Shown here piece after piece: positions 334 to 43,837 of a stretch of DNA of 64,000 bases (position 1 is the stretch's first letter; each line of letters begins with the position of its first letter). A program made the position numbers and the translations under genes. The DNA is from Gammaproteobacteria bacterium. Lineage in GTDB: Bacteria > Pseudomonadota > Gammaproteobacteria > Ga0077536. The notes under the pieces are model-generated. The model had not been told where the DNA came from. It saw nothing but the letters and a program-made list of their open reading frames with translations, and made no database searches. The stretch spans positions 1,696,001 to 1,760,000 of the forward strand of contig CAXXLL010000003.1 in NCBI GenBank assembly GCA_963662545.2. Direction: 5' to 3'.

Positions 334-2934
334 TCAGGCCGATACGACTACATTCACGAGTTTTCCGGGTACGACGATGATCTTGCGGATCGTTTTCTCC
401 GCGGTAAAGCGTTTGACGTTGTCGTCGGCCATGGCCGCGGCCTCACAGTCCGCCTTGCCCGCGTCGGCAGGGACCTGGATGATCGCACGTTTCTTGCCGT
501 TGACCTGCACCACGATCTCGATTTCGTCGCGTACCATCGCATCCTCGTCGGGCCGGGGCCAGGCAGCCTCAATGATATCGTCTGTGTGACCGAGTGCCTG
601 CCACAGTACCGAGGCGACGTGCGGGACGATCGGCGCCAACAATAATACCGCTGTTTCCAGGCCTTCCTGGCGGACTGGCCGTGCCGCTTCGGAGGTGTCG
701 TCCGCACGTGCAATATGATTGACCAGCTCCATCACCGCGGCGATCGCGGTATTGAATTTATACCGCCTGCTGAAGTCGTCGGTGACCTTCGCGATCGTTT
801 CATGGGTGTGCCGGCGCAGCGCCTTGAGATCCTCAGGAAGTGCGCAAGGAAAAACCGCCGATGCATGGCCGCCGGCCACGTGTTTACGCGTCAAGCGCCA
901 CAAGGACTTGATGAACCTGAAAGCGCCTTCGACCGCGGTATCTGACCACTCGAGCGTCTGGTCCGGAGGCGCGGCAAACATCGTGTAGAGACGAATCGTG
1001 TCGGCACCGTAACGATCGATGAGCCCCTGCGGGTCGACGCCGTTGTTTTTGGATTTCGACATCTTCTCGATCGGCCCGATCGTGACCGGCTGTCCATCGC
1101 TGATCAAGCGCGCCGCGATCACTCGGCGCCTGGCGTCCGTTTCCACCTCGACCTCAGCGGGATTGTAGTACTGCCGCCGGCCACGCTCGTTTTCACGGTA
1201 GTACGTTTCCTTGCACACCATCCCCTGGGTTAACAATCGCGTAAAAGGTTCGTCCGACACCACGAGGCCGGCGTCGCGCATCGCCTTGTGAAAGAAGCGC
1301 GCGTAGAGTAAATGCAGTACGGCATGCTCGATACCGCCGATATAAATATCGACCGGCATCCAGTAATCGACGCGTTCGTCGACCATCGCCGTCTCATTGT
1401 CGCGGCAGCAGAAGCGCGAAAAATACCACGACGATTCGAAAAATGTGTCGAAGGTGTCGGTCTCGCGCCGCGCCGGCGCACCGGTTGGCATTCTTGCGTC
1501 GATGAAGTCGGGCATTGAGCGCAAAGGTGAAGAGACGCCCGCCCACTCGACCTCCTCGGGCAAGATCACGGGAAGACCTTCGTCTGCCTCCGGCACCACC
1601 TCGCCGCCATCGCCGTAGAGGACGGGAATAGGGCAGCCCCAGTAACGCTGACGCGACACCAACCAGTCGCGCAAACGGTACTGCGTCCGCCGTTCGGCGC
1701 GGCCTTGGCGCTCGAGCGCCGTGGCGATTGCGTCGAACGCGGACGAAAAATCCAGGCCGTCGAATGCCCCGCTGTTGACCAGCACACCGTGATCCGTAAA
1801 TGCCCCGCGATCGATATCGATCGCTGGCCCATCCGCCGGCGCTACGACCTGGCGGATCGGCAAACGATGCTCGTTCGCGAATTCCCAGTCGCGCTGGTCG
1901 TGTGCGGGAACCGACATCACCGCGCCGGTGCCGTAAGCCATCAGAATGAAATTGGCGACCCACACGGGCAGCGGATCACCGGTCAGGGGATGGTCCACGC
2001 TAAATCCCAGCGGTTCGCCGCGCTTTTCCATCCGTGCGAGGACGCCTTCGCTGGTGGACTGCCGCCGGCAAGAATCCAGAAAAGTTTCCAGTTTTTTGCT
2101 GCCGGCCGCGGCGGCGACCGCCAGGGGATGTTCCGGGGCGATGGCCATATAAGTCGCGCCTAGCAGTGTATCGGGCCGCGTTGTGTACACCTCGAGGTTG
2201 CCGGAACCGTCGCTCAGGGGGAAACGGATGAGCAGACCTTCGGAGCGTCCGATCCAGTTCCGCTGCATGGTCTTGACGGCTTCGGGCCAGCCATCGAGTC
2301 GATCGAGTCCTTCTAGCAGCTCATCGGCATAGGCGGTAATTTTTAGGAACCATTGAGGAATCTCGCGGCGTTCGACCGGCGCTCCCGAGCGCCAGCCGCA
2401 ACCGTCGATCACCTGTTCGTTGGCGAGTACGGTCTGGTCGACCGGATCCCAGTTGACCACCGCCGTGTCGCGGTAAACCAGTCCCTTCTCATACAAGCGT
2501 GCAAAAAACCACTGCTCCCAGCGATAGTAATCGGGGTCGCAAGTGGCGAATTCTCGGTCCCAGTCATAAGCGAAACCGAGCCGCTCGAGTTGTCCGCGCA
2601 TGGATTCGATGTTCGAGCGGGTCCATGCGGCCGGCGGCACGTCGTTCTCGATGGCGGCGTTCTCCGCCGGCAGGCCAAATGCATCCCAACCCATTGGTTG
2701 TAATACATTTTTACCCTGCATGCGTTGGTATCGCGAGATCACATCCCCGATCGTGTAGTTGCGCACATGGCCCATGTGCAGGCGGCCGCTGGGGTAGGGG
2801 AACATCGACAGGCAATAAAACTTCTCGCGGCCTTCGTCTTCGGTTGCCTTGAAGGCACCGCGCTCGCGCCACGCTCGCTGCACCGCCGGCTCGATCACCG
2901 CGGGCTCATAGCGCTCTTTCAGGAACTCCTGCAT
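334..2934 (-). CDS. leuS: Leucine--tRNA ligase
   Basis: [13 protein letters not shown] (HIGH-type) and KMSKSKNN motifs; start may be 2934 or 2949. Confidence 0.98.
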
Positions 2935-3070
2935 GACTTCATCGCGCAAATACTGCGCCCTTTTGCGGTTTCGGCCGGACTGCCCGTAGCATTTTTCATC
3001 CGCGCGCGGCCGGCTTTAGGGCCCGCATCCCGGTGCGGCGCAGAGCATACAGGAGGGCCCTGAGCCGCGC

Positions 3071-4578: not shown

Positions 4579-4751
4579 CCTGCTGTTTCGGACCCGTTAT
4601 ACTTTGGAAAAACGCCTTGATCGTGATTGGCGGTCGGTGAGCGGCGCGCAATCTTAAACGCAGCCTGATGAAATTGCACCCGCACTGTTTTTCTTGAACC
4701 GTACCTTACCAAGGCGTGCCAGCGCACCGACGATCCAGACTGCCCGAGTTT

Positions 4752-5465
4752 ATGGACGCAAAAACGATTCAAATTGGAGACCCGGAGCTTTACATCAACC
4801 GGAAATTGAGCCAACTCCAATTCAACCGACGCGTGCTCGCCCAGGCGATGGACGAATCGAATCCCTTGTTAGAACGGGTGAAGTTCCTGTGCATCGCGAG
4901 CAGCAATCTGGACGAGTTCTTCGAAATCCGTGTGGCCGGACTCAAACAGCAGGTCGCGTTCGGCTCCTTACAGAGCGGCCCTGACCAGATAGTCCCGGTG
5001 GAGCAGCTCAAGGCCATCAGCGCCGGCACGCACGAATTGGTCGACGAACAATACCGTATCCTCAATGAAGAACTCCTGCCGCAGCTCTCGAAAGAGGACA
5101 TTCATTTCCTCAAACGCGGGGAATGGAATGTGCGGCAGGCGGCATGGGTGCGGCGGTTTTTCAATCGTGAATTGCTGCCCGTCTTGAGTCCCATCGGGCT
5201 TGATCCTTCACACCCGTTTCCGCGAATTCTCAACAAGAGCCTCAACTTTCTCGTGTCGTTAGAAGGCACCGACGCCTTCGGACGAGACAGCGTGATCGCC
5301 ATCGTACAGGCGCCGCGATCGCTGCCACGCATCATCAATGTGCCCGACGGTTACGGTAGTGGGCCCTATGAGTTCGTCTTCCTGTCATCGATCATCCACG
5401 CGCACGTCAATGATATTTTCCCAGGCATGGAGGTCACCGGCTGCTATCAGTTCCGGGTGACCTGA
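4752..5465 (+). pseudogene. ppk1: Polyphosphate kinase 1, 5' third only (truncated)
   Basis: YINRKLSQLQFNRRVL, NLDEFFEIRVAGL, HPFPRILNKSLN; stops at GCYQFRVT* after ~240 aa versus ~690 aa for full-length PPK1. Confidence 0.92.
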
Positions 5466-5631
5466 AGGCGGCGAACTCGAGATCTGGTACGGGGGTACGC
5501 CCAAAATAGTCCCCAGGTTGCAGGGCATGCTCACTGCGTTCCCGAGCTACACGATGCACCGCGTCACGCCCGTTACCCGGGGTGTACGGAAGGCGCTCGT
5601 GGCCTGGGTCAACGGCCCGGATTTTCGCTAG
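5464..5631 (+). pseudogene. C-terminal fragment of a 2OG-Fe(II) oxygenase (prolyl-hydroxylase-like)
   Basis: Manual translation EGGELEIWYGGTPKIVPRLQGMLTAFPSYTMHRVTPVTRGVRKALVAWVNGPDFR*; EGGEL...FPSY..HRVTPVT.G.R motif; no start, fused directly to the ppk1 break. Confidence 0.85.
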
Positions 5632-5737
5632 CGTGAATTTCTGTTACGTGCCCTATCGTTCGGCCGTGGCTTAAGCTACATTCGCACCGGGCGCTTGCCG
5701 AAATCACATTCGCCCCTTGTTGCAATGAAAGTTCCCT

Positions 5738-8731
5738 ATGCTGGCCGCCGCCGTTGGCGTCCTCTGGACACGGAGCCCGGACGAGCTGACGAAGGCGCCC
5801 GCAAAAGTGGTGGACGCGGGAACGCGGGCGTTCCAGAAAAGCCTCAAGGATACCTACGACTCCGAAGAGCTCCTGTTCAACCTGCTGCCGCGGCTGCAGA
5901 AGCTGGCCGACGGCACGGCCAACCTCGCGATCCCCGATTACAAGAACGGCAAGCTGTTCGCGGCGCAGGTCACCGTGCGCGATCTCGCGAACAGCTCGGC
6001 CGCAGTGGACGCGATTGACTCTGTCGGTGTCCGCTCGGCGGCGTGGTCCGCGGTGGAGCGGGACGAGACGCTGGCACGAGAGCGCCTGGCAATCTGGCAA
6101 CCCTACCTGAACCAGGTGCGCTACTTCGAGCACGCGAAGTTCTACTTCATAGACGCCCGCTTCGCGGATGAGACACGCACGCGCTGGAACGCAGAGTTGG
6201 GCTTTTCAGGTCTCGCCCGCATGCGGAGCGGCGCCTCGCAGTCGATCAAAGCGGTGATCGAGACGGAATGGGAGCGTGCGGCCGTGATCGAAGACGACCC
6301 TTACGGCGGCTGGCAGATCGACCGCTGGATTACCGGCAGCTTCACCACGATCGAGGCCCGGGAGCCCGTTTTCACCGAGGTGCTCGATGTCGCCATCCCG
6401 GATCCGGATACCCGGGCAAGCCTGCGCGACTCTCAACACGAGCGCATGGTGCTCCGCTACATCGCGGATGAATCCTACGCGCCCAATAAGCTGTTTCGCC
6501 CGCCCGCCTGGGACCGGCATCCCGGGCTCGCAGTCGTCGACATCGACCGCGACGGTTTTGACGACGTCTACACGATGGCCCGCCGGGGCAAGAACAAGTT
6601 CCTGCGCAACCGCGGCGACGGCACGTTCGAGGAGATCGCAGCCGAGCTCGGGCTGGACATCGCCGATTACACATCGAGCGCCTTGTTTGCCGATTTTGAC
6701 AACGACGGCGACGCCGACGTGTTCATCGGACGCACTCTGCAGCCGTCCCAATACCTCATGAACGAGGGCGGACGCTTCGTGGCGCGCTCCGATACCCACG
6801 TCGACGGACGCATGCCACATTTCGTGTCATCGATTTCCGCGGTCGATTACGACGGTGACGGTCTGCTCGATATCTACCTCGCCACTTACGCGTCGCAGAG
6901 CCTGGGCAAAATCAAGAACAACCTGAGCCGCTTCATGCACCGCGAGGACGTCCTACGCCACGATGAACTGCGCATGGCCGACGACTTCGAGAGCTTCGTC
7001 CATGCCTCCGGCCCCCCGAACGTACTACTCAGAAACGTCGGGGACGGGCGCTTCGTCGAGGTGATGGACACGCCGCTCAGAGTATTCAAAAACTCCTACC
7101 AGTGCACATGGGCGGACTACGACGACGACGGCGACATGGACGTCTACTGTGCGAACGATTTCGCGCCGGACAATCTGCTCCGGAACGAAGGCGGCGGCCG
7201 TTTCGTCGATGTCACCAACATGGCCGGTTTCGACGTGGTGGGCCTCGCCATGGGCGCCTCCTGGGGAGATTACGACCGCGACGGCCGGCTCGACTTGTAC
7301 GTCACCAACATGTACAGCAAGGCCGGCTCGCGCATCGCGCGCAAGATCGAAGGCCTTGACCCGCGGTACGCGCAGACGGCGCTGGGGAACTTCCTGTATC
7401 GCAACGAAGGGGACAAGTTTCGCCGGGTGTCGGGCAGTGCCCCCCAGGCTATGCAGGTCGAGCGTGCAGGCTGGTCCTGGGGTAGCCAGTTCATCGATGT
7501 CGACAACGACGGGGACCTCGACATCTATGCGCTGAACGGCTTTTACTCGGCGCCGAAAGACGTTGCCCGTCCGGGTGATACCTGAAGCCGCTTCTGGCGC
7601 TCGGTGGTCCACCGGGTATCGAAGGTCAAGCAGAACCTGAATTACAACCGCTCGGGGCGGTTCGGCTACACCGACCACGCGTCGTGGCGGTATTCGTTGT
7701 CCGGCCGTGAGCGCAGCCACCTGTTCGTGAACGAAGACGGCCGGCGGTTCATCGATGTCTCGGGCATCTCAGGCGCGGACCACCCGGGCGACGGGCGCGC
7801 GTTCGCGAAGATCGATTTCGATCGCGACGGCTGGACGGACCTCGCGGTGATGAACGCGAATGCCCCGGCATTCACTTTGTACCGGAACGAAATCGGGCGA
7901 CGCAGCATCGGAACGGGTGCGGACAATGAAGTGATAGCGGTACGGCTGGCCGGGGGCAACCGCAGCGCGCATCCCGCCACGGACGCGAGTAACCGGGACG
8001 GCATCGGAGCGCGCTTCTGGGTGTCTTTCGAGAACGAGACGATCGTCAGGGAGTACCGTGCCGGCGAGGGCATGGCAGCCCAGAACAGCGCGACCCAGCT
8101 GATCGGCATCGGCCCGCGGCAGACTGTCCAAAGCCTCAAGGTCCGCTGGCCGTCGGGTACCGAGCAGACTGTCGCGGCCGTACCGGCGGGCACGCTGGTC
8201 ACCGTCTACGAGGACCCGGCGCACTCGCCCACGGGTGAAGCGTTCGTGTTCGAAACGTATCGCCGCTCGTCGCCGACGGACAACAAGCCGGTATCACCCC
8301 GGAATGAACTCGCATCGCTGCCGCGCTTCGCGCTACCTTCGGCCGCGTCACACGGGCCGAAGGGCCGCTTGCGACTCTATACCGCGACGGCGACATGGTG
8401 CCCGAACTGCAAGCGGGAACTGCCGCAGCTCGAGCGCCTGCGCGCGACGTTCACGGACGGCGAGCTCGCCATGTTCGGTGTACCCGTCGACGATACCGAA
8501 ACCAGGGAGATGTTCGAGGCCTATGTCGCCGAGCATCGGCCCGCCTACGACATGCTGATCGGGATCGCCCCGGAAGAACAGGCCACGATGCGCCAGACGC
8601 TGACCTCGCGACTCAAGTCCGAAGGGATACCCGCCACGCTGGTGACGGATGCCGAGGATCGCATCCTGCACGTTAGCTGGGGCGTGCCGAGCCTGTCGAC
8701 ACTGCACAAGCTGCTGGCTTTGAGCCGCTAG
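5738..8731 (+). CDS. FG-GAP/CRTAC1-repeat + ASPIC/UnbV + TlpA-like thioredoxin protein, probably read through one in-frame UGA (7583-7585) as a putative selenoprotein of ~997 aa
   Basis: ORFs 5738..7585 and 7604..8731 are in the same frame, separated by one TGA; multiple DxDxDG Ca-binding repeats, SNRDGIGAR...VRWPSG (ASPIC/UnbV), ATWCPNC; SECIS-like hairpin immediately after the UGA. Confidence 0.7.
7586..7624 (+). promoter_or_regulatory. Putative bacterial SECIS element
   Basis: CTCGGTG-GTC-CACCGGG upper stem-loop (7600-7616) with loop G 22 nt after the UGA; lower stem CTTC/GAAG. Confidence 0.65.
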
Positions 8732-9000
8732 ACCGGATCCCCCGTCGTCGCGCGCCGACGAAGCGCGACAGGAGAGGGCGACGCCGCGGCCGGGTCATTG
8801 CGCAAGTTTCAGCATGGGCATTGACCCTTGCCCGCTTGCGGCGGCTTTCACATGGCGGCGCGTTTTTGCACTAATTTTCATTGTCAGTCGCGCGGTTCCC
8901 TTACAATGTTGCGCCGCTGTGCGGCGCTTGCCAGGGCACCGATCGCGGTCATCGAGCGGGCCGGTACCAGGCAGCGCGCGCGAAGTGAGGTCGAAACACC

Positions 9001-10221
9001 ATGATTCGAATCGTAAGTTCATGCGCCCGGCCGCGCCGTCTCGACCACGCGACCGTGCGGGACATCGAGGACGAGGGCTCCCTGCTGACAGTGGCGGGTG
9101 GCGACCCGGTGTCCCTCAACGCGACAGCACGCCGCATCCTCGAACTGTGCGACGGCGCGCGCAGCGTAGCCGCGATCAGCGAGGCGCTCGCGGCAAATTT
9201 CGGCAGCTCGCGTGACGCGGTGCTGTCCGACGTGCGTGAGTCCGTGCGGCATCTCGCCGATATTCCCGCGCTGGAACTCAACGATGACACGTCGTGCGAG
9301 GCAGGGCCCGCCGATATCGACTGGTCGCGGATAGCCGCGCCGCAGCCCGATCAGTACGACACCGAGGTGGTGCTTGACCTGATGGCGGACAAACTGCGGG
9401 GACGCTGGCTCTATTGTGGCGATTCCGGTGAGGACTGGTGGCAGCCCGATGGCCGCATTAAGCTCGGCGACGGCCGCGTCGACGTCGGTTACTGTTATAA
9501 CGGACCGTGCGAGGACTCTTTGCTGCGGCTCCTGACGAACGCGCCGCTCGATCACCCGAATATCGCGGCCGCCGAGGAATTCCTGCACGCCTGGCCGGTC
9601 GCGGCCGAGCAGTTCGGCCGTTTGATGCGCTGCCTGCATCCGGTGATCGACCCGCACCGCCCCAGCGATGAGCGCGCCTTCCTGGTCGGCAGCAACTCGC
9701 ATTCCGTGAATCACCGGGCGATGTTCGGCACGTTGTATTCGACCATTAACTGCCCGCTGGAGCTCGCGAACAATTGCATTCACGAAATGGCCCATCAGAA
9801 GCTCTTCGCGCTGGGCATCTACAAGGAGTCGAGTACGGCGCTCATTACCAATGACCCGCAGGAAATGTACGCGAGTCCGGTGATCGTCGATCGACCGCGA
9901 CCGATGACGGCGGTGATCCACGGTGTTTACGTGTTCTGCTACGTCGCGCAACTCGAATTGCACGTACTGGACACGAACCTGCTTAACGGCGAGCGACGCG
10001 ACATGCTGCGCAAGCGGCTGTCGAAGGACCTGGGGCGTCTGCATACCGGGGTGCGGGAAATCGTCGATAACGTGCGCAGCGACGCCTGTGGCACGGCGTT
10101 TCTCGGCGGCTTGTACCGTTGGATAGACCAGCTGCTGAAGGACGGTCGTGCCCGCCTCGGAATGCAGTCGTTTCCCGCACCTAAGATCCGGCACCCGGCC
10201 GTGGCGGGGCAGGGCGCTTGA
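9001..10221 (+). CDS. PqqD-type RiPP recognition element fused to an HExxH domain (aKG-HExxH-type peptide beta-hydroxylase-like)
   Basis: N-terminal LNATARRILELCDGARSVAAI (RRE); C-terminal IHEMAHQKL and YASPVIVDRPRPMTAVIHG. Confidence 0.85.
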   Translation: MIRIVSSCARPRRLDHATVRDIEDEGSLLTVAGGDPVSLNATARRILELCDGARSVAAISEALAANFGSSRDAVLSDVRESVRHLADIPALELNDDTSCEAGPADIDWSRIAAPQPDQYDTEVVLDLMADKLRGRWLYCGDSGEDWWQPDGRIKLGDGRVDVGYCYNGPCEDSLLRLLTNAPLDHPNIAAAEEFLHAWPVAAEQFGRLMRCLHPVIDPHRPSDERAFLVGSNSHSVNHRAMFGTLYSTINCPLELANNCIHEMAHQKLFALGIYKESSTALITNDPQEMYASPVIVDRPRPMTAVIHGVYVFCYVAQLELHVLDTNLLNGERRDMLRKRLSKDLGRLHTGVREIVDNVRSDACGTAFLGGLYRWIDQLLKDGRARLGMQSFPAPKIRHPAVAGQGA

Positions 10222-10838
10222 ACGTGGTAAAGCCTTCGTCGGAAACGGGCGTCCTCGGACCGTTTCACGTCAGGGAGGCGGCCGCCAAGCCCTTCGCGTA
10301 TTTTGTCGTGGATGACGTCCTCGAGTGCGCGCACGCCGACTCGCTGCTCGCGTGGATCGAGTCATGCCGGTGGTGGGAACTGGTCCACACCCAATTCTAT
10401 GATCAGTACGAGTTCATGGTGTGCGAAGGGAAACGCCGCATGGACCTGCCGAAGGAGTGCAAGCCGCTGTTCACGCAAGCGGCGCTCGGCGAACTGGCCG
10501 CGCTCGTCGGCGAGCATCTCGGGCTAGAGCGCTGCCTGATCTTGAGAGTCGTAGCGCATATGCTCAAGCCCGGCCAGGGGATCGGCATACACAACGACGA
10601 CAAAGCAAACGGGCCGCCGACATTCCGTTTCGTTCTACAGCTCAACCGCAGCTACGACGATCGGGACGGCGGGCAGCTGGGCCTGTTCGACGGCCACGAC
10701 CTCGACCGCGTGATCCACATCGCCCGCCCGTTGCACAATACGGGCTGCGCATTCGCCATTGGGTCGGCCTCGCAACATGCAGTCAGCGAAGTCCGTCGCG
10801 GGAACCGTTATACGTTGGTCTATACCTTTACGGGTTGA
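10218..10838 (+). CDS. 2OG-Fe(II) oxygenase resembling the cyclophane-RiPP-associated YhhC type
   Basis: FYDQYEF, AHMLKPGQGIGIHND (HxD), HAVSEVRRGNRYTLVYTF; TTG start overlaps upstream stop. Confidence 0.8.
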   Translation: MNVVKPSSETGVLGPFHVREAAAKPFAYFVVDDVLECAHADSLLAWIESCRWWELVHTQFYDQYEFMVCEGKRRMDLPKECKPLFTQAALGELAALVGEHLGLERCLILRVVAHMLKPGQGIGIHNDDKANGPPTFRFVLQLNRSYDDRDGGQLGLFDGHDLDRVIHIARPLHNTGCAFAIGSASQHAVSEVRRGNRYTLVYTFTG

Positions 10839-10850
10839 AGCATCGGCGAG

Positions 10851-11990
10851 ATGAAGCGCAGTCACATCCGACGCGATGAAATACCGCAGCGCCTCTCCAG
10901 CGTCACCGGCTACGAACTCGCCAGCGAATTACTGCTCTACTGCAGCGATTCGCAGCGGGTCCACGTATTAAACGCGTCGGCGGCCGCCGTGTGGGATCTC
11001 TGTGACGGACAGCGCACGGTGCTCGAGATCAACCGTGAGCTGGCATCGGTGCTCCGGCGTTCGAATGCAGACCTGTTTCCTGACATTCAACTCGCGGTCA
11101 ACGAGCTGTTAAAAATGGAGATGATCGATATAGCACCGCCGCCGGTCAGCGACGCCCGCGAAGTGCTGATGGCGATGCGGGCAGCGCCGGCGATGGCGAT
11201 GGCGATCGGATTCAACGGTACGGCAGTGACTATCCATACCGAAGTCGAGGGCGTCAGGGCGCACCTGTCCGGCCGGTTCGGAAGGCTGGTCGCATCGGGC
11301 GGCGAAGCGAACGTCGCCGACTTCTACGTGCAAGCTTCGGGGGATCGCTATCTGTTGTGCGGAGAGTCCGGCGAAACACGTTACCTGGGTGGCCTAGGCG
11401 ACGTCCTGCAGGAACTCGAAATGGTGCTGGTTCAAACGCTCGTGGACGCGAACCCGGATCTGTTATGGATGCACGCCGGCGCGGTTGCGGACGACGGCGG
11501 CGCGATCATGGTCGTCGGGCCGTCGGGGGCGGGCAAGAGCATGTTCATAACGGGACTGGCGCGTGAGTCGCGCGTCTATCTTTCCGATGACGTGCTGCCG
11601 GTACGCAAGGAAACCAGTGAAGCGCTGCCATTCCCACTGGCGCCGAGCGTGCGCCTCGCCGCCGGGCCCCGGCTGCCGGCGCACCGTATCCAGAACGTCG
11701 AACGGGAGTCCATCGCATTGAGTGACGACCAGATCGGGTGCGCGCCGTTTCGTCTCGCTGCCGTTTTGCTACCGATATTCGACGCTGGGAAATCGGCGCA
11801 GATCCGCGAACCCAGCCCATCGCAGGTCGCCCGCGTGCTGATTGAGAACAGTCTCAACATAGCGCAGCACCGGGAACGGGCCGTCGCCTATCTGTGCGAA
11901 CTCGCGAACACCGTTCCGGCGCTCGAGTTGCGCTACGGTGACCGCGCCGCAGCGCTCGAGCTCGCGGCGCGCGCACTTCCTTTGAGCTGA
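10851..11990 (+). CDS. PqqD-type RRE fused to an HprK-related P-loop kinase
   Basis: VHVLNASAAAVWDLCDGQRT (RRE); HAGAV, GPSGAGKS Walker A, YLSDD. Confidence 0.85.
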   Translation: MKRSHIRRDEIPQRLSSVTGYELASELLLYCSDSQRVHVLNASAAAVWDLCDGQRTVLEINRELASVLRRSNADLFPDIQLAVNELLKMEMIDIAPPPVSDAREVLMAMRAAPAMAMAIGFNGTAVTIHTEVEGVRAHLSGRFGRLVASGGEANVADFYVQASGDRYLLCGESGETRYLGGLGDVLQELEMVLVQTLVDANPDLLWMHAGAVADDGGAIMVVGPSGAGKSMFITGLARESRVYLSDDVLPVRKETSEALPFPLAPSVRLAAGPRLPAHRIQNVERESIALSDDQIGCAPFRLAAVLLPIFDAGKSAQIREPSPSQVARVLIENSLNIAQHRERAVAYLCELANTVPALELRYGDRAAALELAARALPLS

Positions 11991-15014: not shown

Positions 15015-16711
15015 GTGTCCGTCCATAAACAGGCATTTTCTTCGATGGGCACGGAGAAATCGAGGTGTTGAAAGTAGGTTGTTGGAGCGGTAGCGGCGGT
15101 TCGGTGGGGGTCGAAGGGCTCTTCGAGCGTAATTGTGAGTACGTTCGCCGGCCGCAGAGCGCTGCAACCCAAAGTCGCCCGTTCGACGATATCGAGGAGG
15201 TCAGTTAGTGCGAGTGAACGTCGCTATTCGAGTTGATAGCGCGCGAGCAGGCTGAGGTTGTAGGCGACCACAGAAGACCACACGTAGGCTTCGAAGTGCG
15301 GCAGGCTCTTCCAGGTGCAACGTGCCAATCCGTATGCACGCTTCAGGCAGGAGATACCGGCCTCGATGCCGGCGCGGAAGTTGCGCAAGCGTCGATAGAC
15401 CCACTGACTCTTGACCATGTCGGCGATCGCGAGCCCGCGCTTCTTGTGGAAGGCAACGTCTTCGATGCCTTCTGCTTTCGCCGCCCGGAGATTGTCGAGG
15501 CTCGCATAGCCGCCATCGGCGGCGACCTGTCGTGGCATCGTCCCGTAGTGTGTTCGATGCCGTTCGAGCATCGGCATGAAGCGCTGACTATCGACCGGAT
15601 TGCCTCGCTCGATGACCACGTCGAGGATGAGGCCACTGCGCCCCGAAGCCAGATTGATTTTGTGTCCGTACTGAACGTCGCGCGCACCCTTTATGATGAT
15701 GTCGGTATGCGGCTCGAACAAGCTCACGCACTTCTCGCTCGCGGGGACCTTCTCACCGCCGAACACCCGCCGCTCAGTTTGCGAAATCACCTGCAGAACA
15801 AGTGTTTCGTAGTGCGCTACCTGCGCTAGCCAGTCCGGCAGTTCAACGCCGGTGACGCCCGGGCTCAGCAGCTGCTCACGTACCCTCGCTACCGCTTCCA
15901 AGGTTGAACGCGTCGCCCCAATCAAATCGCGATACAGACGTTGGCGTTGCTTCGCACCACGCGCATACCACAGCGCCCGCGCACGCTTCTTCGCCAATCG
16001 AGTGTGGTTCACGAAGCACAACTCCGGCGCGCCAGGCAACTCGCGCGCCTGTGCGAGCAGACGAACCACAACACGCACGCCATCCCACAGCAGATGACTG
16101 TCGCTCGGCGCGTGGATGGCACTGTCCGTTACCGTGCTATCAATCCGTACACGCTGTGCCGGCTCAATGCGCGTCTCTTTCGCCGTCGCCAGCAGGGCGC
16201 GATGAATAGACTCCCACGTCGATACCTGGATCGCCGAGACCACCCGCTGTAAGGCAGACTTCTTCGGACGTTCATTACCCGGCAACCGGGCGAAGGCCTG
16301 AAAGCTCGCCGAGTCCTGCAGGTGAAAGGCCAGCTCCTCGTAACTCAATTGCCGGTGCTGCTTGAGCACCGCGCAGCGCAGCACCGACTCCGCCGACAGT
16401 CCGCGTCGACCGGTGGGCTTCAAACCCCGCCGACACAGATCGTTCATGACCGGCGTGAGGACCTTGGGGTGAGCATCGAGCCACTCGGACATGCCCTGCA
16501 GCTCTCGCCCCAGGTCATGGTCAGCAAACAGCTCGTATATACTCGCTTGGGCCGTGCGTTTCTGACGCATTCCCCCTCCTGTGGTGTCGATGATTGTGTG
16601 GAAAATCAGAGGTTTGAAGTTCCATTAGATCACGACCCACCGGAGGTTTCGATCCCTTAAGCGACAAATTTTCCTTTTTATTTCAACCGCATCGCGTTTA
16701 GGGATGCACAC
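15015..16711 (-). mobile_element. ISNCY/IS5-like insertion sequence inside ppx
   Basis: Imperfect IRs GTGTCCGTCCATAAAC / GTGTGCATCCCTAAAC; target duplication TAGGTA (readable as CTAGGTAG) at 15009-15014 and 16712-16717. Confidence 0.9.
15224..16570 (-). CDS. ISNCY-family DDE transposase
   Basis: RIDSTV, ADGGY, FRAGIEAGISCLKR motifs. Confidence 0.9.
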   Translation of the reverse strand: MRQKRTAQASIYELFADHDLGRELQGMSEWLDAHPKVLTPVMNDLCRRGLKPTGRRGLSAESVLRCAVLKQHRQLSYEELAFHLQDSASFQAFARLPGNERPKKSALQRVVSAIQVSTWESIHRALLATAKETRIEPAQRVRIDSTVTDSAIHAPSDSHLLWDGVRVVVRLLAQARELPGAPELCFVNHTRLAKKRARALWYARGAKQRQRLYRDLIGATRSTLEAVARVREQLLSPGVTGVELPDWLAQVAHYETLVLQVISQTERRVFGGEKVPASEKCVSLFEPHTDIIIKGARDVQYGHKINLASGRSGLILDVVIERGNPVDSQRFMPMLERHRTHYGTMPRQVAADGGYASLDNLRAAKAEGIEDVAFHKKRGLAIADMVKSQWVYRRLRNFRAGIEAGISCLKRAYGLARCTWKSLPHFEAYVWSSVVAYNLSLLARYQLE

Positions 16712-41459: not shown

Positions 41460-42023
41460 TTAATCAGCGGAAAGAAACGCAATCAAGGCATTTTCGGCCG
41501 CTTCCGCCGGCCATTCTCCCTGATGCGTCAAAAGCACTGCCCCGTCCGCGCCGATGACTGCAGTGTAGGGCAGGCCCCCGATGCTGTTGCCGAGTGACTG
41601 CATGAAACGCACCACGTCATCTTCGCCGATCAACACCGGGTAGTTCATCGCCTGGTCGGTGACAAATGGCGCGACGGCCTCGCTCTGATCGAGCGCGATC
41701 CCGACGAACTGCAGACCGCGATCTCCATACCGCGTCTGTAGGTCGATGAACGTTGGGATCTCCCGCAGGCACGGCGAACACCAGGTCGCCCAGAAATTGA
41801 CCACCAGCAGGCGGCCGCGCCAGCGCTCGAGCGGGATCCGCTCGCCGTGCAGATCCGTAAACGACCAGTCGAACGGCATTGCCGCGGCGCCCGCGGCTAT
41901 CACTGTGGCCGTCGGCTCCGGTGTCGCCGAGGCCGTTCGGCTCAGGTATTGGTGCGTGACGTAACCGCTGCTTCCCGCGAGCAGCGCGAGCGCCACGAGC
42001 GCAATGTGAAACGGTCTGATCAC
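41460..42023 (-). CDS. TlpA-family thiol-disulfide oxidoreductase
   Basis: VNFWATWCSPCLREIP. Confidence 0.93.
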   Translation of the reverse strand: MIRPFHIALVALALLAGSSGYVTHQYLSRTASATPEPTATVIAAGAAAMPFDWSFTDLHGERIPLERWRGRLLVVNFWATWCSPCLREIPTFIDLQTRYGDRGLQFVGIALDQSEAVAPFVTDQAMNYPVLIGEDDVVRFMQSLGNSIGGLPYTAVIGADGAVLLTHQGEWPAEAAENALIAFLSAD

Positions 42024-43837
42024 AAGCGGTCGAGATACGCAGTGAATTCTTCGGCATCTGCGAACCCGACCAGCCGGTTACTTCTCAATTCCTGACCGTC
42101 CTTGAAAAACAGCACCGCCGGAGGACCGAACAGCTCATAGCGTGACAGCAGCGCCTGATCGGCCGCGTCGTTAGCCGTGACGTCGGCGCGGAGCAGCACC
42201 AGCTCATCAAGCCTCGCCGCCACGTTCGCGTCGGTAAAGGTCCGGCGTTCGAGAATTTTACATTCCACGCACCAATCGGCGTAGAAATCCAGCATTACAT
42301 CGCGGCCATCCCGGCTCGCGCGTTGTAGTTGAAGATCGAGGCTTTCGATGCCCTTGATCTCGATGAACCGTGCGGTCGCAGGCTCGTCCGCGCCGCCGCC
42401 CACGAGCGGTGCCAGCGGAAAGGCAAGATCCTTACCGCCGACCGAAGCACCCACGATAAGCACCGCACCGTAGAACAGCATCGCCAGCCCCATCCCCTTG
42501 CGGAAGCGGCGCCAGCCGCCGTCCGACCTATCCAGGGCGTCAAGCGCGCCCAGGAAAAGGGACGACCCGACCAACAGCAGTGCCCACAGGGCAAGCGTCG
42601 CGCGACCGGGCAGGATGCGTTCCAAAAACCAGATCGCCATGCCAAGGAAGATCACGCCGAAAACCTTACTGACGACCTCCATCCAGGCACCCGCAGGCGG
42701 CAGTAACGCGCCGGTCGAAGTGCCAAGCACGACTAACGGCAATCCCATGCCAAGGCCGAGGGCGAACAGGGCACCGCCGCCGACCACGGCGGATCCGGTC
42801 TGGCCGATATAGATCAGGATACCCGCGAGCGGGGGCGCCACGCACGGCCCGACGATGACTGCTGAGAGCACGCCCATCACCGCGACGCCCGCATAGGTCC
42901 CGCCGCGCTGCGAGCGGCTCATTGCATCGAGGCGCTTTTGCAGGCGCGCCGGCAGCTTGATTTCGTAGAAGCCGAACATCGACAGCGCCAGCAAGACGAA
43001 GATCAGGCTGAATCCGATGATCACGGACGGTTGCTGGAAAGCGGCCTGCAGATTGCGGCCCAGCAGCCCGGCCGCGACACCCGCAGCGGCGTATGTCACG
43101 GCCATGGCGAGAACATAAGTTGAAGACAAGGTAAAAGCGCGGCGTGTGTTCACGGGTTGTTTCTGACCGACGATGATGCCGGACAAGATCGGAACCATGG
43201 GGAACACGCAGGGTGTAAACGCCAGCAGCACACCGAGGCTCAGGAACGTCGCCATCATTACCGGCAAGGATCGCACCGCGAGTTCATTCGCTATGCGATC
43301 GGATTCCGAAAATCCGCCCGGGGGTTCGAGCCCGGTGTTCGACATCTCGCCCTGGATAGGCGAGAACGCAACCGTTTTTTTCAACGGGGGATAACAGATG
43401 CCGTCTTCCGCGCAACCCTGGTAGCCCACTTCGGCCTCGAGCAGAAATTCGCCCGCCGGCCACTGTTCAACTGGAACGCGGACGGCGACGTGGTTTCTGA
43501 AAATGGCGACCGAACCAAACCCGGGATCGTCTTTCATCTCGCCCGCGGGGAGATCGGGCGCAGCGAGGACCAGGCCGGCCGTCTGCGGCCTGACCTTCAT
43601 TTTGTTTCGATAGAGGTAGTAACCCGGTTCGATCGCCCAGGCGATCGTGAGCCTACCGTCGCTCGCGATCTCGTGGGTCATGACGAAGGCTTCGTCGACC
43701 GGCAGGAATTCGCGTTCGCCGGCGCTCGAACTCTGCCTGGTCAGACGCTCGAGTTCATCGAGTACTCCCGCCCACGCAGCGCCGCTCACGACGCAGAGCG
43801 TGAGTACAATCAGCGCGTAAGGGCTTGTTTTATCCAT
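42020..43837 (-). CDS. dsbD: Protein-disulfide reductase DsbD
   Basis: YQGCAEDGICYPP, FTPCVFPM, GPCVAPPL, FYADWCVEC. Confidence 0.96.
   Translation of the reverse strand: MDKTSPYALIVLTLCVVSGAAWAGVLDELERLTRQSSSAGEREFLPVDEAFVMTHEIASDGRLTIAWAIEPGYYLYRNKMKVRPQTAGLVLAAPDLPAGEMKDDPGFGSVAIFRNHVAVRVPVEQWPAGEFLLEAEVGYQGCAEDGICYPPLKKTVAFSPIQGEMSNTGLEPPGGFSESDRIANELAVRSLPVMMATFLSLGVLLAFTPCVFPMVPILSGIIVGQKQPVNTRRAFTLSSTYVLAMAVTYAAAGVAAGLLGRNLQAAFQQPSVIIGFSLIFVLLALSMFGFYEIKLPARLQKRLDAMSRSQRGGTYAGVAVMGVLSAVIVGPCVAPPLAGILIYIGQTGSAVVGGGALFALGLGMGLPLVVLGTSTGALLPPAGAWMEVVSKVFGVIFLGMAIWFLERILPGRATLALWALLLVGSSLFLGALDALDRSDGGWRRFRKGMGLAMLFYGAVLIVGASVGGKDLAFPLAPLVGGGADEPATARFIEIKGIESLDLQLQRASRDGRDVMLDFYADWCVECKILERRTFTDANVAARLDELVLLRADVTANDAADQALLSRYELFGPPAVLFFKDGQELRSNRLVGFADAEEFTAYLDRL

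Follow-up and report, generated by a model that had tools for sequence, protein, structure and literature searches.

A probable selenocysteine codon in a bacterial CRTAC1-like propeller gene with a fused TlpA-like domain

Introduction

A gene for a large β-propeller protein is interrupted by a single in-frame UGA, and the question that this locus raises is whether the UGA ends the protein or is read as selenocysteine (Sec). The gene lies at positions 5738-8731 of a stretch of 64,000 nucleotides from a Gammaproteobacteria bacterium (assembly GCA_963662545.2, contig CAXXLL010000003.1, positions 1,696,001 to 1,760,000), which we call the window and to which the coordinates of the gene refer. A first-pass annotation of the window, made from its letters alone, had proposed that the UGA is a Sec codon followed by a hairpin resembling a selenocysteine insertion sequence (SECIS), and that the product is a fusion of FG-GAP, UnbV and thioredoxin domains; this central claim was borne out by the tests that we ran. 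TGA 7583-7585 most likely encodes Sec in a read-through, CRTAC1-like propeller protein, and the comparative evidence makes Sec decoding appear close to established, short of chemistry. The explanation that best covers the observations as a whole, and that we consider very probable, is a Sec codon with its SECIS in one propeller protein with a TlpA-like domain, where Sec would act in redox chemistry together with a CxxC motif.

One reading frame with a single UGA

The two open reading frames (ORFs) at 5738..7585 (615 aa) and 7604..8731 (375 aa) share one frame and, as the first-pass annotation had stated, are separated only by the TGA. Read through, they give a protein of 997 aa with the sequence ...RPGDT-U-SRFWRSVV... 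across the junction, and the G+C content at third codon positions (GC3) stays at ~0.83 on both sides. Pfam domains and coding continuity are likewise found on either side of the UGA, with matches to FG-GAP_3 (PF13517; 144 bits over six stretches), FG-GAP (PF01839; 76 bits), UnbV_ASPIC (PF07593) at residues 755-821 (50.2 bits, cut-off 23.4) and AhpC-TSA/Redoxin at residues 876-985 (PF00578; 26.6 bits, cut-off 26). The motif WCPNC stands at residues 887-891, and a Pfam EGF domain was not found in the read-through protein. The downstream ORF of 375 aa is intact in a relative that is 94% identical (P0124), where it is annotated as a gene of its own.

Contigs of three other studies (X2, X6 and X9) cover 5500-8900 with one to three differing letters each, none of them at 7583-7585; the TGA is identical in all three and is not a base-call error. 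At 5737/5738 each of these contigs has 41 additional letters that are missing in this assembly. With these letters in place, ATG 5725 (13 nt before ATG 5738 in this assembly) is in frame, and so is a hydrophobic N-terminal segment, as in protein P0003 (99% identical), which starts MKVPFANTRDVIYLTVIAMLAAAVG... and shows a hydrophobic segment at its N-terminus by inspection. Because the 41 nt are missing at 5737/5738, ATG 5725 (MKVP...) is out of frame here, and ATG 5738 is not the natural start. The missing letters encode half of the hydrophobic N-terminal segment (anchor), and their absence may reflect either a genuine deletion or a fault of the assembly. In run X20, RNA contigs match 5926-6118 and 7870-8021; with DNA carry-over as an alternative, this hints at transcription weakly at best.

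Conservation of the UGA among homologs

We searched 1.84 billion cluster representatives (50% identity clustering) with HMMER and analysed 146 (P0122-P0267) of the best 150 matches. Among these diverged representatives, 116 end exactly before alignment column 616, their last residues being ...YTAPxxxxxxxD-x; they are ~560-1740 aa long, and their ends align to query residues up to 615. Homologs that read through the column carry Glu, Ser, Thr or Cys there.

The DNA itself was read at column 616 in 80 genome loci, picked by protein similarity from species-representative genomes. An in-frame stop codon occupies the column in 16 of the 80, and it is TGA in every case (16/16; TAA 0, TAG 0), followed in all 16 by S/T-x-[FYLV]-W-R/L-x-V-V. 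By record title these loci belong to Gemmatimonadota, Verrucomicrobiota, Planctomycetota (including Phycisphaerae) and Acidobacteriota, with one further record of Candidatus Multivorans. The credible homologs with no stop have GAG at the column in three loci (L049, L055 and L052) and TCG in one (L059).

A motif scan of metagenome contigs gave at least 120 stretches, from which 80 loci, selected for TGA, were analysed. At least 81 metagenome matches (80 listed loci) have the frame open on both sides of the TGA, and in the listed matches, wherever the contig end does not cut it off, it continues for as many as 866 codons upstream and 169-886 downstream. Since this set was selected for TGA, it shows coding continuity and carries no information on the choice of stop codon. 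Many of these homolog genes, among the listed metagenome matches, also end in TGA, so that the genetic code is not reassigned. Aligned in this way, the homologs place a UGA at the same column across phyla and, behind it, a conserved hairpin. One metagenome contig (L201) carries two Sec-type paralogues, at 2917-2948 (+) and 8208-8239 (-), which are 1397 and 1370 aa long when read through.

The hairpin downstream of the UGA

The first-pass annotation had placed a loop G 22 nt past the UGA and the GTG start of the downstream ORF, lacking a ribosome-binding site, inside the hairpin. Both descriptions hold: in CTCGGTG-GTC-CACCGGG (7600-7616) the loop opens with G7607, 22 nt beyond the A of the UGA, GTG 7604 falls in the 5' arm, and no Shine-Dalgarno-like sequence precedes it by inspection. 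When the closing G-C pair is opened, a 6-bp stem with the loop GGUCC results, which is the design of the family shifted by one codon. The loop motif GGUC is one that we take to resemble the loop of E. coli fdhF.

Homologs were compared in an ungapped alignment of the 45 nt from the TGA, comprising 98 sequences (95 distinct). The pattern used to pick part of the metagenome set holds positions 13-17, 22-23 and 25-26 constant and leaves the signal positions 18-21, 24 and 27-31 free. In the putative loop the third codon positions are near-fixed (+21 G in 76/95, +24 C in 81/95 and +27 G in 90/95), whereas neighbouring third positions outside it are mixed. The stem of the family (15-20/26-31, loop GGUCG) is paired in 83.2% of cells; sliding the partners lowers this to 21-67% and the covariation from 0.216, a value that none of 500 shuffles reached, to 0.03-0.07. 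Pair 18-28 occurs as AU (26), GU (24), CG (13), UA (13), GC (5) and UG (1), and its 5' base falls on the unconstrained third position of an Arg codon. At least five of the six pairs form in 88 of the 95 distinct sequences, in either the family register or a register with a 4-nt loop. The window hairpin adopts a third register, with the stem 18-24/28-34, and shares it with a locus of similar peptide context (L126) that shows a compensatory G-C to C-G change.

The published model of the bacterial SECIS (bSECIS), as set out in section 5 and the legend of Fig. 2 of PMC13188914, has a loop of 3-9 nt, a stem of 4-16 bp and a distance of 16-37 nt from the UGA, and section 5 of the same review places a G in the first two loop positions (PMC13188914). 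The window hairpin (stem of 7-8 bp, loop GUC, 21 nt spacing) and the family consensus (stem of 6 bp, loop GGUCG, 17 nt spacing) both fit the model as given in those parts of the review. What had been called SECIS-like from one sequence is therefore conserved and covarying in homologs and agrees with the published geometry in that form. The DNAs of four non-Sec homologs form 0, 3, 5 and 4 of the six stem pairs. In a Glu-type (GAG) locus from an Acidobacteriota metagenome-assembled genome (L052:6875-6922), the sequence W-R-Q-V-V is encoded with CAG GTC GTG and five of the six pairs form; this hairpin looks like a relic SECIS from a recent Sec-to-Glu change.

Selenocysteine machinery and a second candidate selenoprotein gene

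The selA, selB, selC and selD genes that the first-pass annotation had named are all present in the genome. SelA matches with 525 bits, SelB through its wing domain and SelD with 283 bits, and the tRNA-Sec gene (selC) has the anticodon tca; all four lie within ~30 kb on contig C2. Across genomes, SelA was found in 16 of 16 that carry TGA-type homologs (E <= 3.7e-62), in three of four with non-Sec forms and in two of 14 controls. The selD match (G000:C2:1272288-1273199, L035) sits inside an open frame of 761 aa, which suggests that SelD may be fused to another domain.

We also scanned the genome for in-frame TGA codons by GC3 and codon usage, requiring at least 40 codons upstream, a procedure that is strict and noisy and does not amount to a census. 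It returned one credible extra candidate, a GrdB-like ORF (PF07355) with an in-frame TGA in the motif U-P-V-C at G000:C2:1219697 (L246:698-700). This second selenoprotein-type gene is ~25 kb from selA, and its hairpin at +14 to +32 is at the same distance from the UGA as that of the gene studied here. An RRM protein with a second ORF behind it, another candidate from the scan, proved a false lead, and a search of the genome for formate dehydrogenase alpha gave no match with an internal stop.

Predicted structure and location

AlphaFold2, run with a 45-row alignment, predicted a β-rich, single compact chain with a predicted local distance difference test (pLDDT) score of 90.7 and a predicted template modelling (pTM) score of 0.90. 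The earlier proposal that Sec616 sits in a propeller loop did not survive this model, in which U616 is the first residue of a helix (616-627) that comes after strand 595-600 and belongs to an insertion between blades, with further FG-GAP-like blades after it. The best match in the PDB by Foldseek was murine CRTAC1 (9etn_A; E 7.4e-26, template modelling score 0.74 on the target, root mean square deviation 4.2); the alignment extends over 668 columns, and the propeller and UnbV body spans the Sec site. CRTAC1 was also matched by sequence profile (E 4.8e-34), and aldos-2-ulose dehydratase, a metal-dependent enzyme, was among the structural matches. The profile matches of the C-terminal domain were TlpA (1jfu_A, E 7.9e-18) and ResA (E ~1e-15). 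NCBIfam gave no family-level model for the propeller part, and for the C-terminal domain its full-length models scored far below their cut-offs.

The N-termini of the 44 complete Sec-type homologs are signal peptide-, lipobox- or anchor-like by inspection, and with such an N-terminal signal or anchor the protein is predicted to be exported. The sole DsbD_TM gene of the genome (320 bits) is at 42611-43261 (-) of the window, ~35 kb from the selenoprotein gene. It is a possible electron source for the fused thioredoxin domain, a suggestion that draws on its presence in the genome. A TlpA-like ORF at 41517-41819 (-) adjoins the DsbD_TM gene and is 31% identical to the fused thioredoxin domain.

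Residue 616 and the CxxC motif

Cys or Sec stands at residues 456, 471, 616, 888 and 891 of the window protein, and only residue 616 and the CxxC are conserved. The first-pass annotation had given the motif D-x-[C/S]-S-x-F-W-R for homologs; the motif was partly right, but the variable column is mostly Glu, which 110 of the 118 read-through homologs carry, the others having Ser (5), Cys (1; P0143), Thr (1) and Asp (1). Sec and Glu forms alike conserve D614, S617, W620 and R621. Class-specific positions are S655 (100% in Sec forms, 1% in Glu forms) and V623, in the codons of the SECIS loop, which is found in 100% of Sec forms and is Met in Glu forms.

A local search with hidden Markov models (HMMs) detected a thioredoxin-like domain in 36/44 Sec-type, 69/110 Glu-type and 4/5 Ser-type proteins. 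Every Sec form (36/36) and the one Cys form (1/1) with this domain retain its CxxC, as do 3/4 Ser and 9/69 Glu forms, while the one Asp form (0/1) does not; the record of the Cys-type protein P0143 ends inside its thioredoxin domain. Sec forms keep C888 in 100% and E894 in 95% of cases; for Glu forms the figures are 14% and 7%. On a FastTree phylogeny of 273 propeller segments the Sec-type tips are scattered, with at least 11 state changes; midpoint rooting and parsimony place Sec at the root, which is not reliably inferred. Among the rows with a known thioredoxin state, Sec and Glu interchange only twice, and an independent-pairs sign test on these two pairs gives p 0.5. A complex prediction for the Ser-type protein P0123, body 232-845 against thioredoxin domain 850-997, scored 0.01 with no contacts and is evidence neither way.

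Proposed mechanism and alternative explanations

We propose that the hairpin, ~17-35 nt past the UGA, would act as a bacterial SECIS and recruit SelB with Sec-tRNA(Sec), upon which the ribosome would read through the UGA and make one protein, of ~997 aa here and 1015 aa in the intact allele elsewhere. At the N-terminal end of its helix, Sec616 would be the redox-active residue of an extracytoplasmic oxidoreductase. A substrate would oxidise it to a selenenic acid or a selenenylsulfide, the fused CxxC domain would reduce it again, and this domain would draw its electrons via a DsbD/CcdA-type membrane reductase; relatives of the Glu type would derive from such an enzyme as non-redox proteins with a decayed CxxC. 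Such a relay, with Sec616 oxidised by the substrate and re-reduced by the fused CxxC, seems to us the most economical reading, and we give it about one chance in two. That the proteins would form the first recognised family of extracytoplasmic β-propeller selenoenzymes, with the selenolate recycled in cis by a TlpA-like CxxC, we put slightly below an even chance. If they do, the Sec-to-Glu switches with decay of CxxC and SECIS may be repeated conversions of an enzyme into a non-redox protein, for which our confidence likewise falls a little short of half.

Several observations weigh against this proposal. Glu in 110 of 118 read-through homologs with Cys in only one is atypical for selenoproteins, and a column so dominated by Glu is as compatible with a ligand or acid-base role as with a redox one. 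Eight of the 44 complete Sec-type proteins gave no match to a thioredoxin domain in the local HMM search. The recycling of Sec616 by the fused WCPNC, as put forward in the first-pass annotation, draws support from the comparative CxxC pattern, but the association of Sec with CxxC comes from about two independent events and is suggestive, not proven. The folding energy of the window hairpin is at the level of shuffled sequence (z -0.12 and -0.61), so that its significance derives from conservation and covariation in homologs, and no SECIS family of Rfam matched it. An orthologue was not found in 60 related genomes, nor a conserved gene neighbourhood among the loci, where the best neighbour cluster occurs in only seven and gives no hint of a substrate. 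This copy of the gene may be damaged or mis-assembled at its 5' end.

Sec616 could be real and yet serve as a soft ligand for a metal or metalloid, or, paired with the near-invariant D614, as an anionic residue in catalysis. Forms with Glu, Asp, Ser or Thr would then bind a harder metal or use oxygen chemistry, and the CxxC would handle the metal or the substrate. Such a role would suit a column at which U, E, S, T, C and D alternate, all of them lone-pair donors with Glu dominant, and within a motif whose D614, S617, W620 and R621 are kept whichever class is considered; propellers of FG-GAP repeats are scaffolds for metal binding, with many DxDxDG loops invariant in these proteins, and a metal-dependent enzyme, the aldos-2-ulose dehydratase, is among the structural matches. 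TlpA serves copper-site assembly. What tells against a ligand is that W-C-x-x-C-x-x-E is kept in Sec forms and decays in Glu forms, for which a thiol-selenol relay is the simplest account, and we judge the ligand role to be rather unlikely, though a serious contender.

The other explanations dispense with selenium. The UGA might be read as a standard amino acid, through a near-cognate Trp, Cys or Arg tRNA or a reassigned code, and here it counts that the case for selenium rests on sequence and not on chemistry. Against it stand the conserved, covarying hairpin with bSECIS geometry behind the UGA, the presence of SelA in all 16 host genomes and of selABCD in this one, and the use of TGA as the terminal stop of many of the same genes, and we regard it as very improbable. 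Slighter still is the prospect that the TGA is an inactivating nonsense mutation in a pseudogene. The 41 nt missing from this copy, the truncated polyphosphate kinase gene that adjoins it, the transposase nearby and the want of orthologues in the 60 related genomes would all suit a decaying gene; yet a TGA at the same column recurs in 16 genomes and in at least 81 metagenome matches open on both sides, 116 diverged cluster representatives stop at that column, the TGA is identical in the contigs of three studies, the coding signal downstream is undecayed and the downstream ORF is intact in the 94%-identical relative. Gene callers predict split genes in many databases (P0003 and P0124 among them), as would be expected if the locus made two products, a propeller fragment of 615 aa ending at the UGA and a second protein starting at GTG 7604. 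The stop, however, would fall inside the conserved D-x-[U/E/S]-S-x-F-W-R, which is continuous in read-through homologs, GTG 7604 is in the hairpin stem with no Shine-Dalgarno-like sequence before it, and the chain is predicted as a single compact unit (pTM 0.90) whose CRTAC1-like body spans the site; two products, like a pseudogene, are hardly to be expected.

Relation to known systems and implications

With the CRTAC1/ASPIC-UnbV family, whose name 'CRTAC1 family protein' is borne by relatives in public records, the protein shares an FG-GAP β-propeller followed by UnbV_ASPIC. It differs in being only 16% identical to CRTAC1 9etn_A, with a profile alignment that skips the segment of the Sec motif (600-680), and in adding an N-terminal domain, a C-terminal TlpA-like domain and the putative Sec. 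Genes with a SECIS of the fdhF type have in common with it an in-frame UGA and a short hairpin at 17-21 nt whose apical loop starts G-G/U, whereas the protein described here belongs to no known selenoprotein oxidoreductase family, is predicted to be exported and has a non-Sec counterpart that is mostly Glu. The TlpA, ResA and CcmG reductases match the C-terminal domain and likewise have W-C-x-x-C with Glu three residues later, but here the domain is a fused part of a propeller protein of ~1000 aa. In the known families that combine Sec with a TlpA-like thioredoxin fold, as far as the main texts of the catalogues cover them, Sec is inside the motif of the thioredoxin fold (UGC, UxxC); in our protein the CxxC is all-Cys, and the putative Sec is ~270 residues upstream in a different domain.

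The biochemical role of the CRTAC1/ASPIC fold is, to our knowledge, unsettled. The fold is usually taken as a structural or binding scaffold, and the reading of U616 as a redox residue would, if true, give it a catalytic redox site and thus a testable catalytic hypothesis. The family would then be common in marine and soil Planctomycetota, Verrucomicrobiota, Acidobacteriota and Gemmatimonadota, which points to possible selenium use outside the cytoplasm by widespread environmental bacteria. Annotation would change as well, the 116 of 146 representatives that end at column 616 being truncated gene calls and P0124 a downstream fragment called separately.

Full-text searches found no literature linking selenoproteins with FG-GAP, VCBS, ASPIC, UnbV or CRTAC1. 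Bacterial selenoprotein families number slightly more than 110 according to the main texts of PMC13188914 and PMC13326102. The same fold terms are absent from the main text of the first of these, a 2026 review, and from part of its table of more than 110 families (PMC13188914), and PF13517, PF01839 and PF07593 are absent from its main text. They are also absent from the main texts of BSepDB (PMC13326102), deep-Sep (PMC12013277) and a Planctomycetes genome paper (PMC4807772), the supplementary tables lying outside this comparison, and from those of a 2022 review (PMC9312934) and the GOS study (PMC2398784). What we describe is most likely a widespread bacterial selenoprotein family that is unlisted in the catalogue main texts checked. 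Selenoprotein discovery, according to the main text of PMC13188914, relies on Sec/Cys pairs; with Glu as the usual counterpart, this would explain how the family was missed, and it exposes a blind spot of methods built on such pairs.

Feature coordinates and gene neighbourhood

Table 1. Features of the putative selenoprotein gene and its surroundings, in window coordinates.
Feature	Position	Strand	Remarks
Remnant of the natural start (ATG AAA GTT CCC + T)	5725..5737	+	Out of frame in this assembly
Coding part upstream of the putative Sec, residues 1-615	5738..7582	+	N-terminal helix and β-sheet domain, then FG-GAP β-propeller blades
UGA, most likely selenocysteine (U616), motif D-T-U-S-R-F-W-R	7583..7585	+	Homolog conservation, independent contigs
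Coding part downstream of the putative Sec, residues 617-997 with stop codon	7586..8731	+	Helical insertion, last FG-GAP blade(s), UnbV_ASPIC, TlpA-like thioredoxin-fold domain
SECIS-like hairpin	7599..7617	+	Stem 7600-7606 with 7610-7616 (plus G7599-U7617), apical loop GUC 7607-7609
UnbV_ASPIC domain (residues 755-821)	8000..8200	+	PF07593; match to CRTAC1 structure 9etn_A
TlpA/ResA-like thioredoxin-fold domain (residues 871-991)	8348..8710	+	Pfam and profile matches
W887-C888-P-N-C891 codons	8396-8410	+	E894 comes after
PqqD / 2OG-Fe(II) oxygenase / transposase region	9001-11990 and 15224-16570	+ and -, respectively	

Directly upstream of the selenoprotein gene lies a truncated polyphosphate kinase gene (4716-5465, +; 249 aa), of which only the N-terminal domain and a portion of the middle one remain. 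This adjoining truncated gene suggests that the selenoprotein gene is at a point of insertion or rearrangement. On the other side, a 2-oxoglutarate (2OG)-Fe(II) oxygenase lies between two proteins with PqqD domains (406 and 379 aa), and a DDE transposase comes next. Taken with the absence of orthologues in the 60 relatives, the region of the PqqD and transposase genes looks like an island, in which the PqqD proteins and the 2OG-Fe(II) oxygenase possibly form a peptide-modification cluster.

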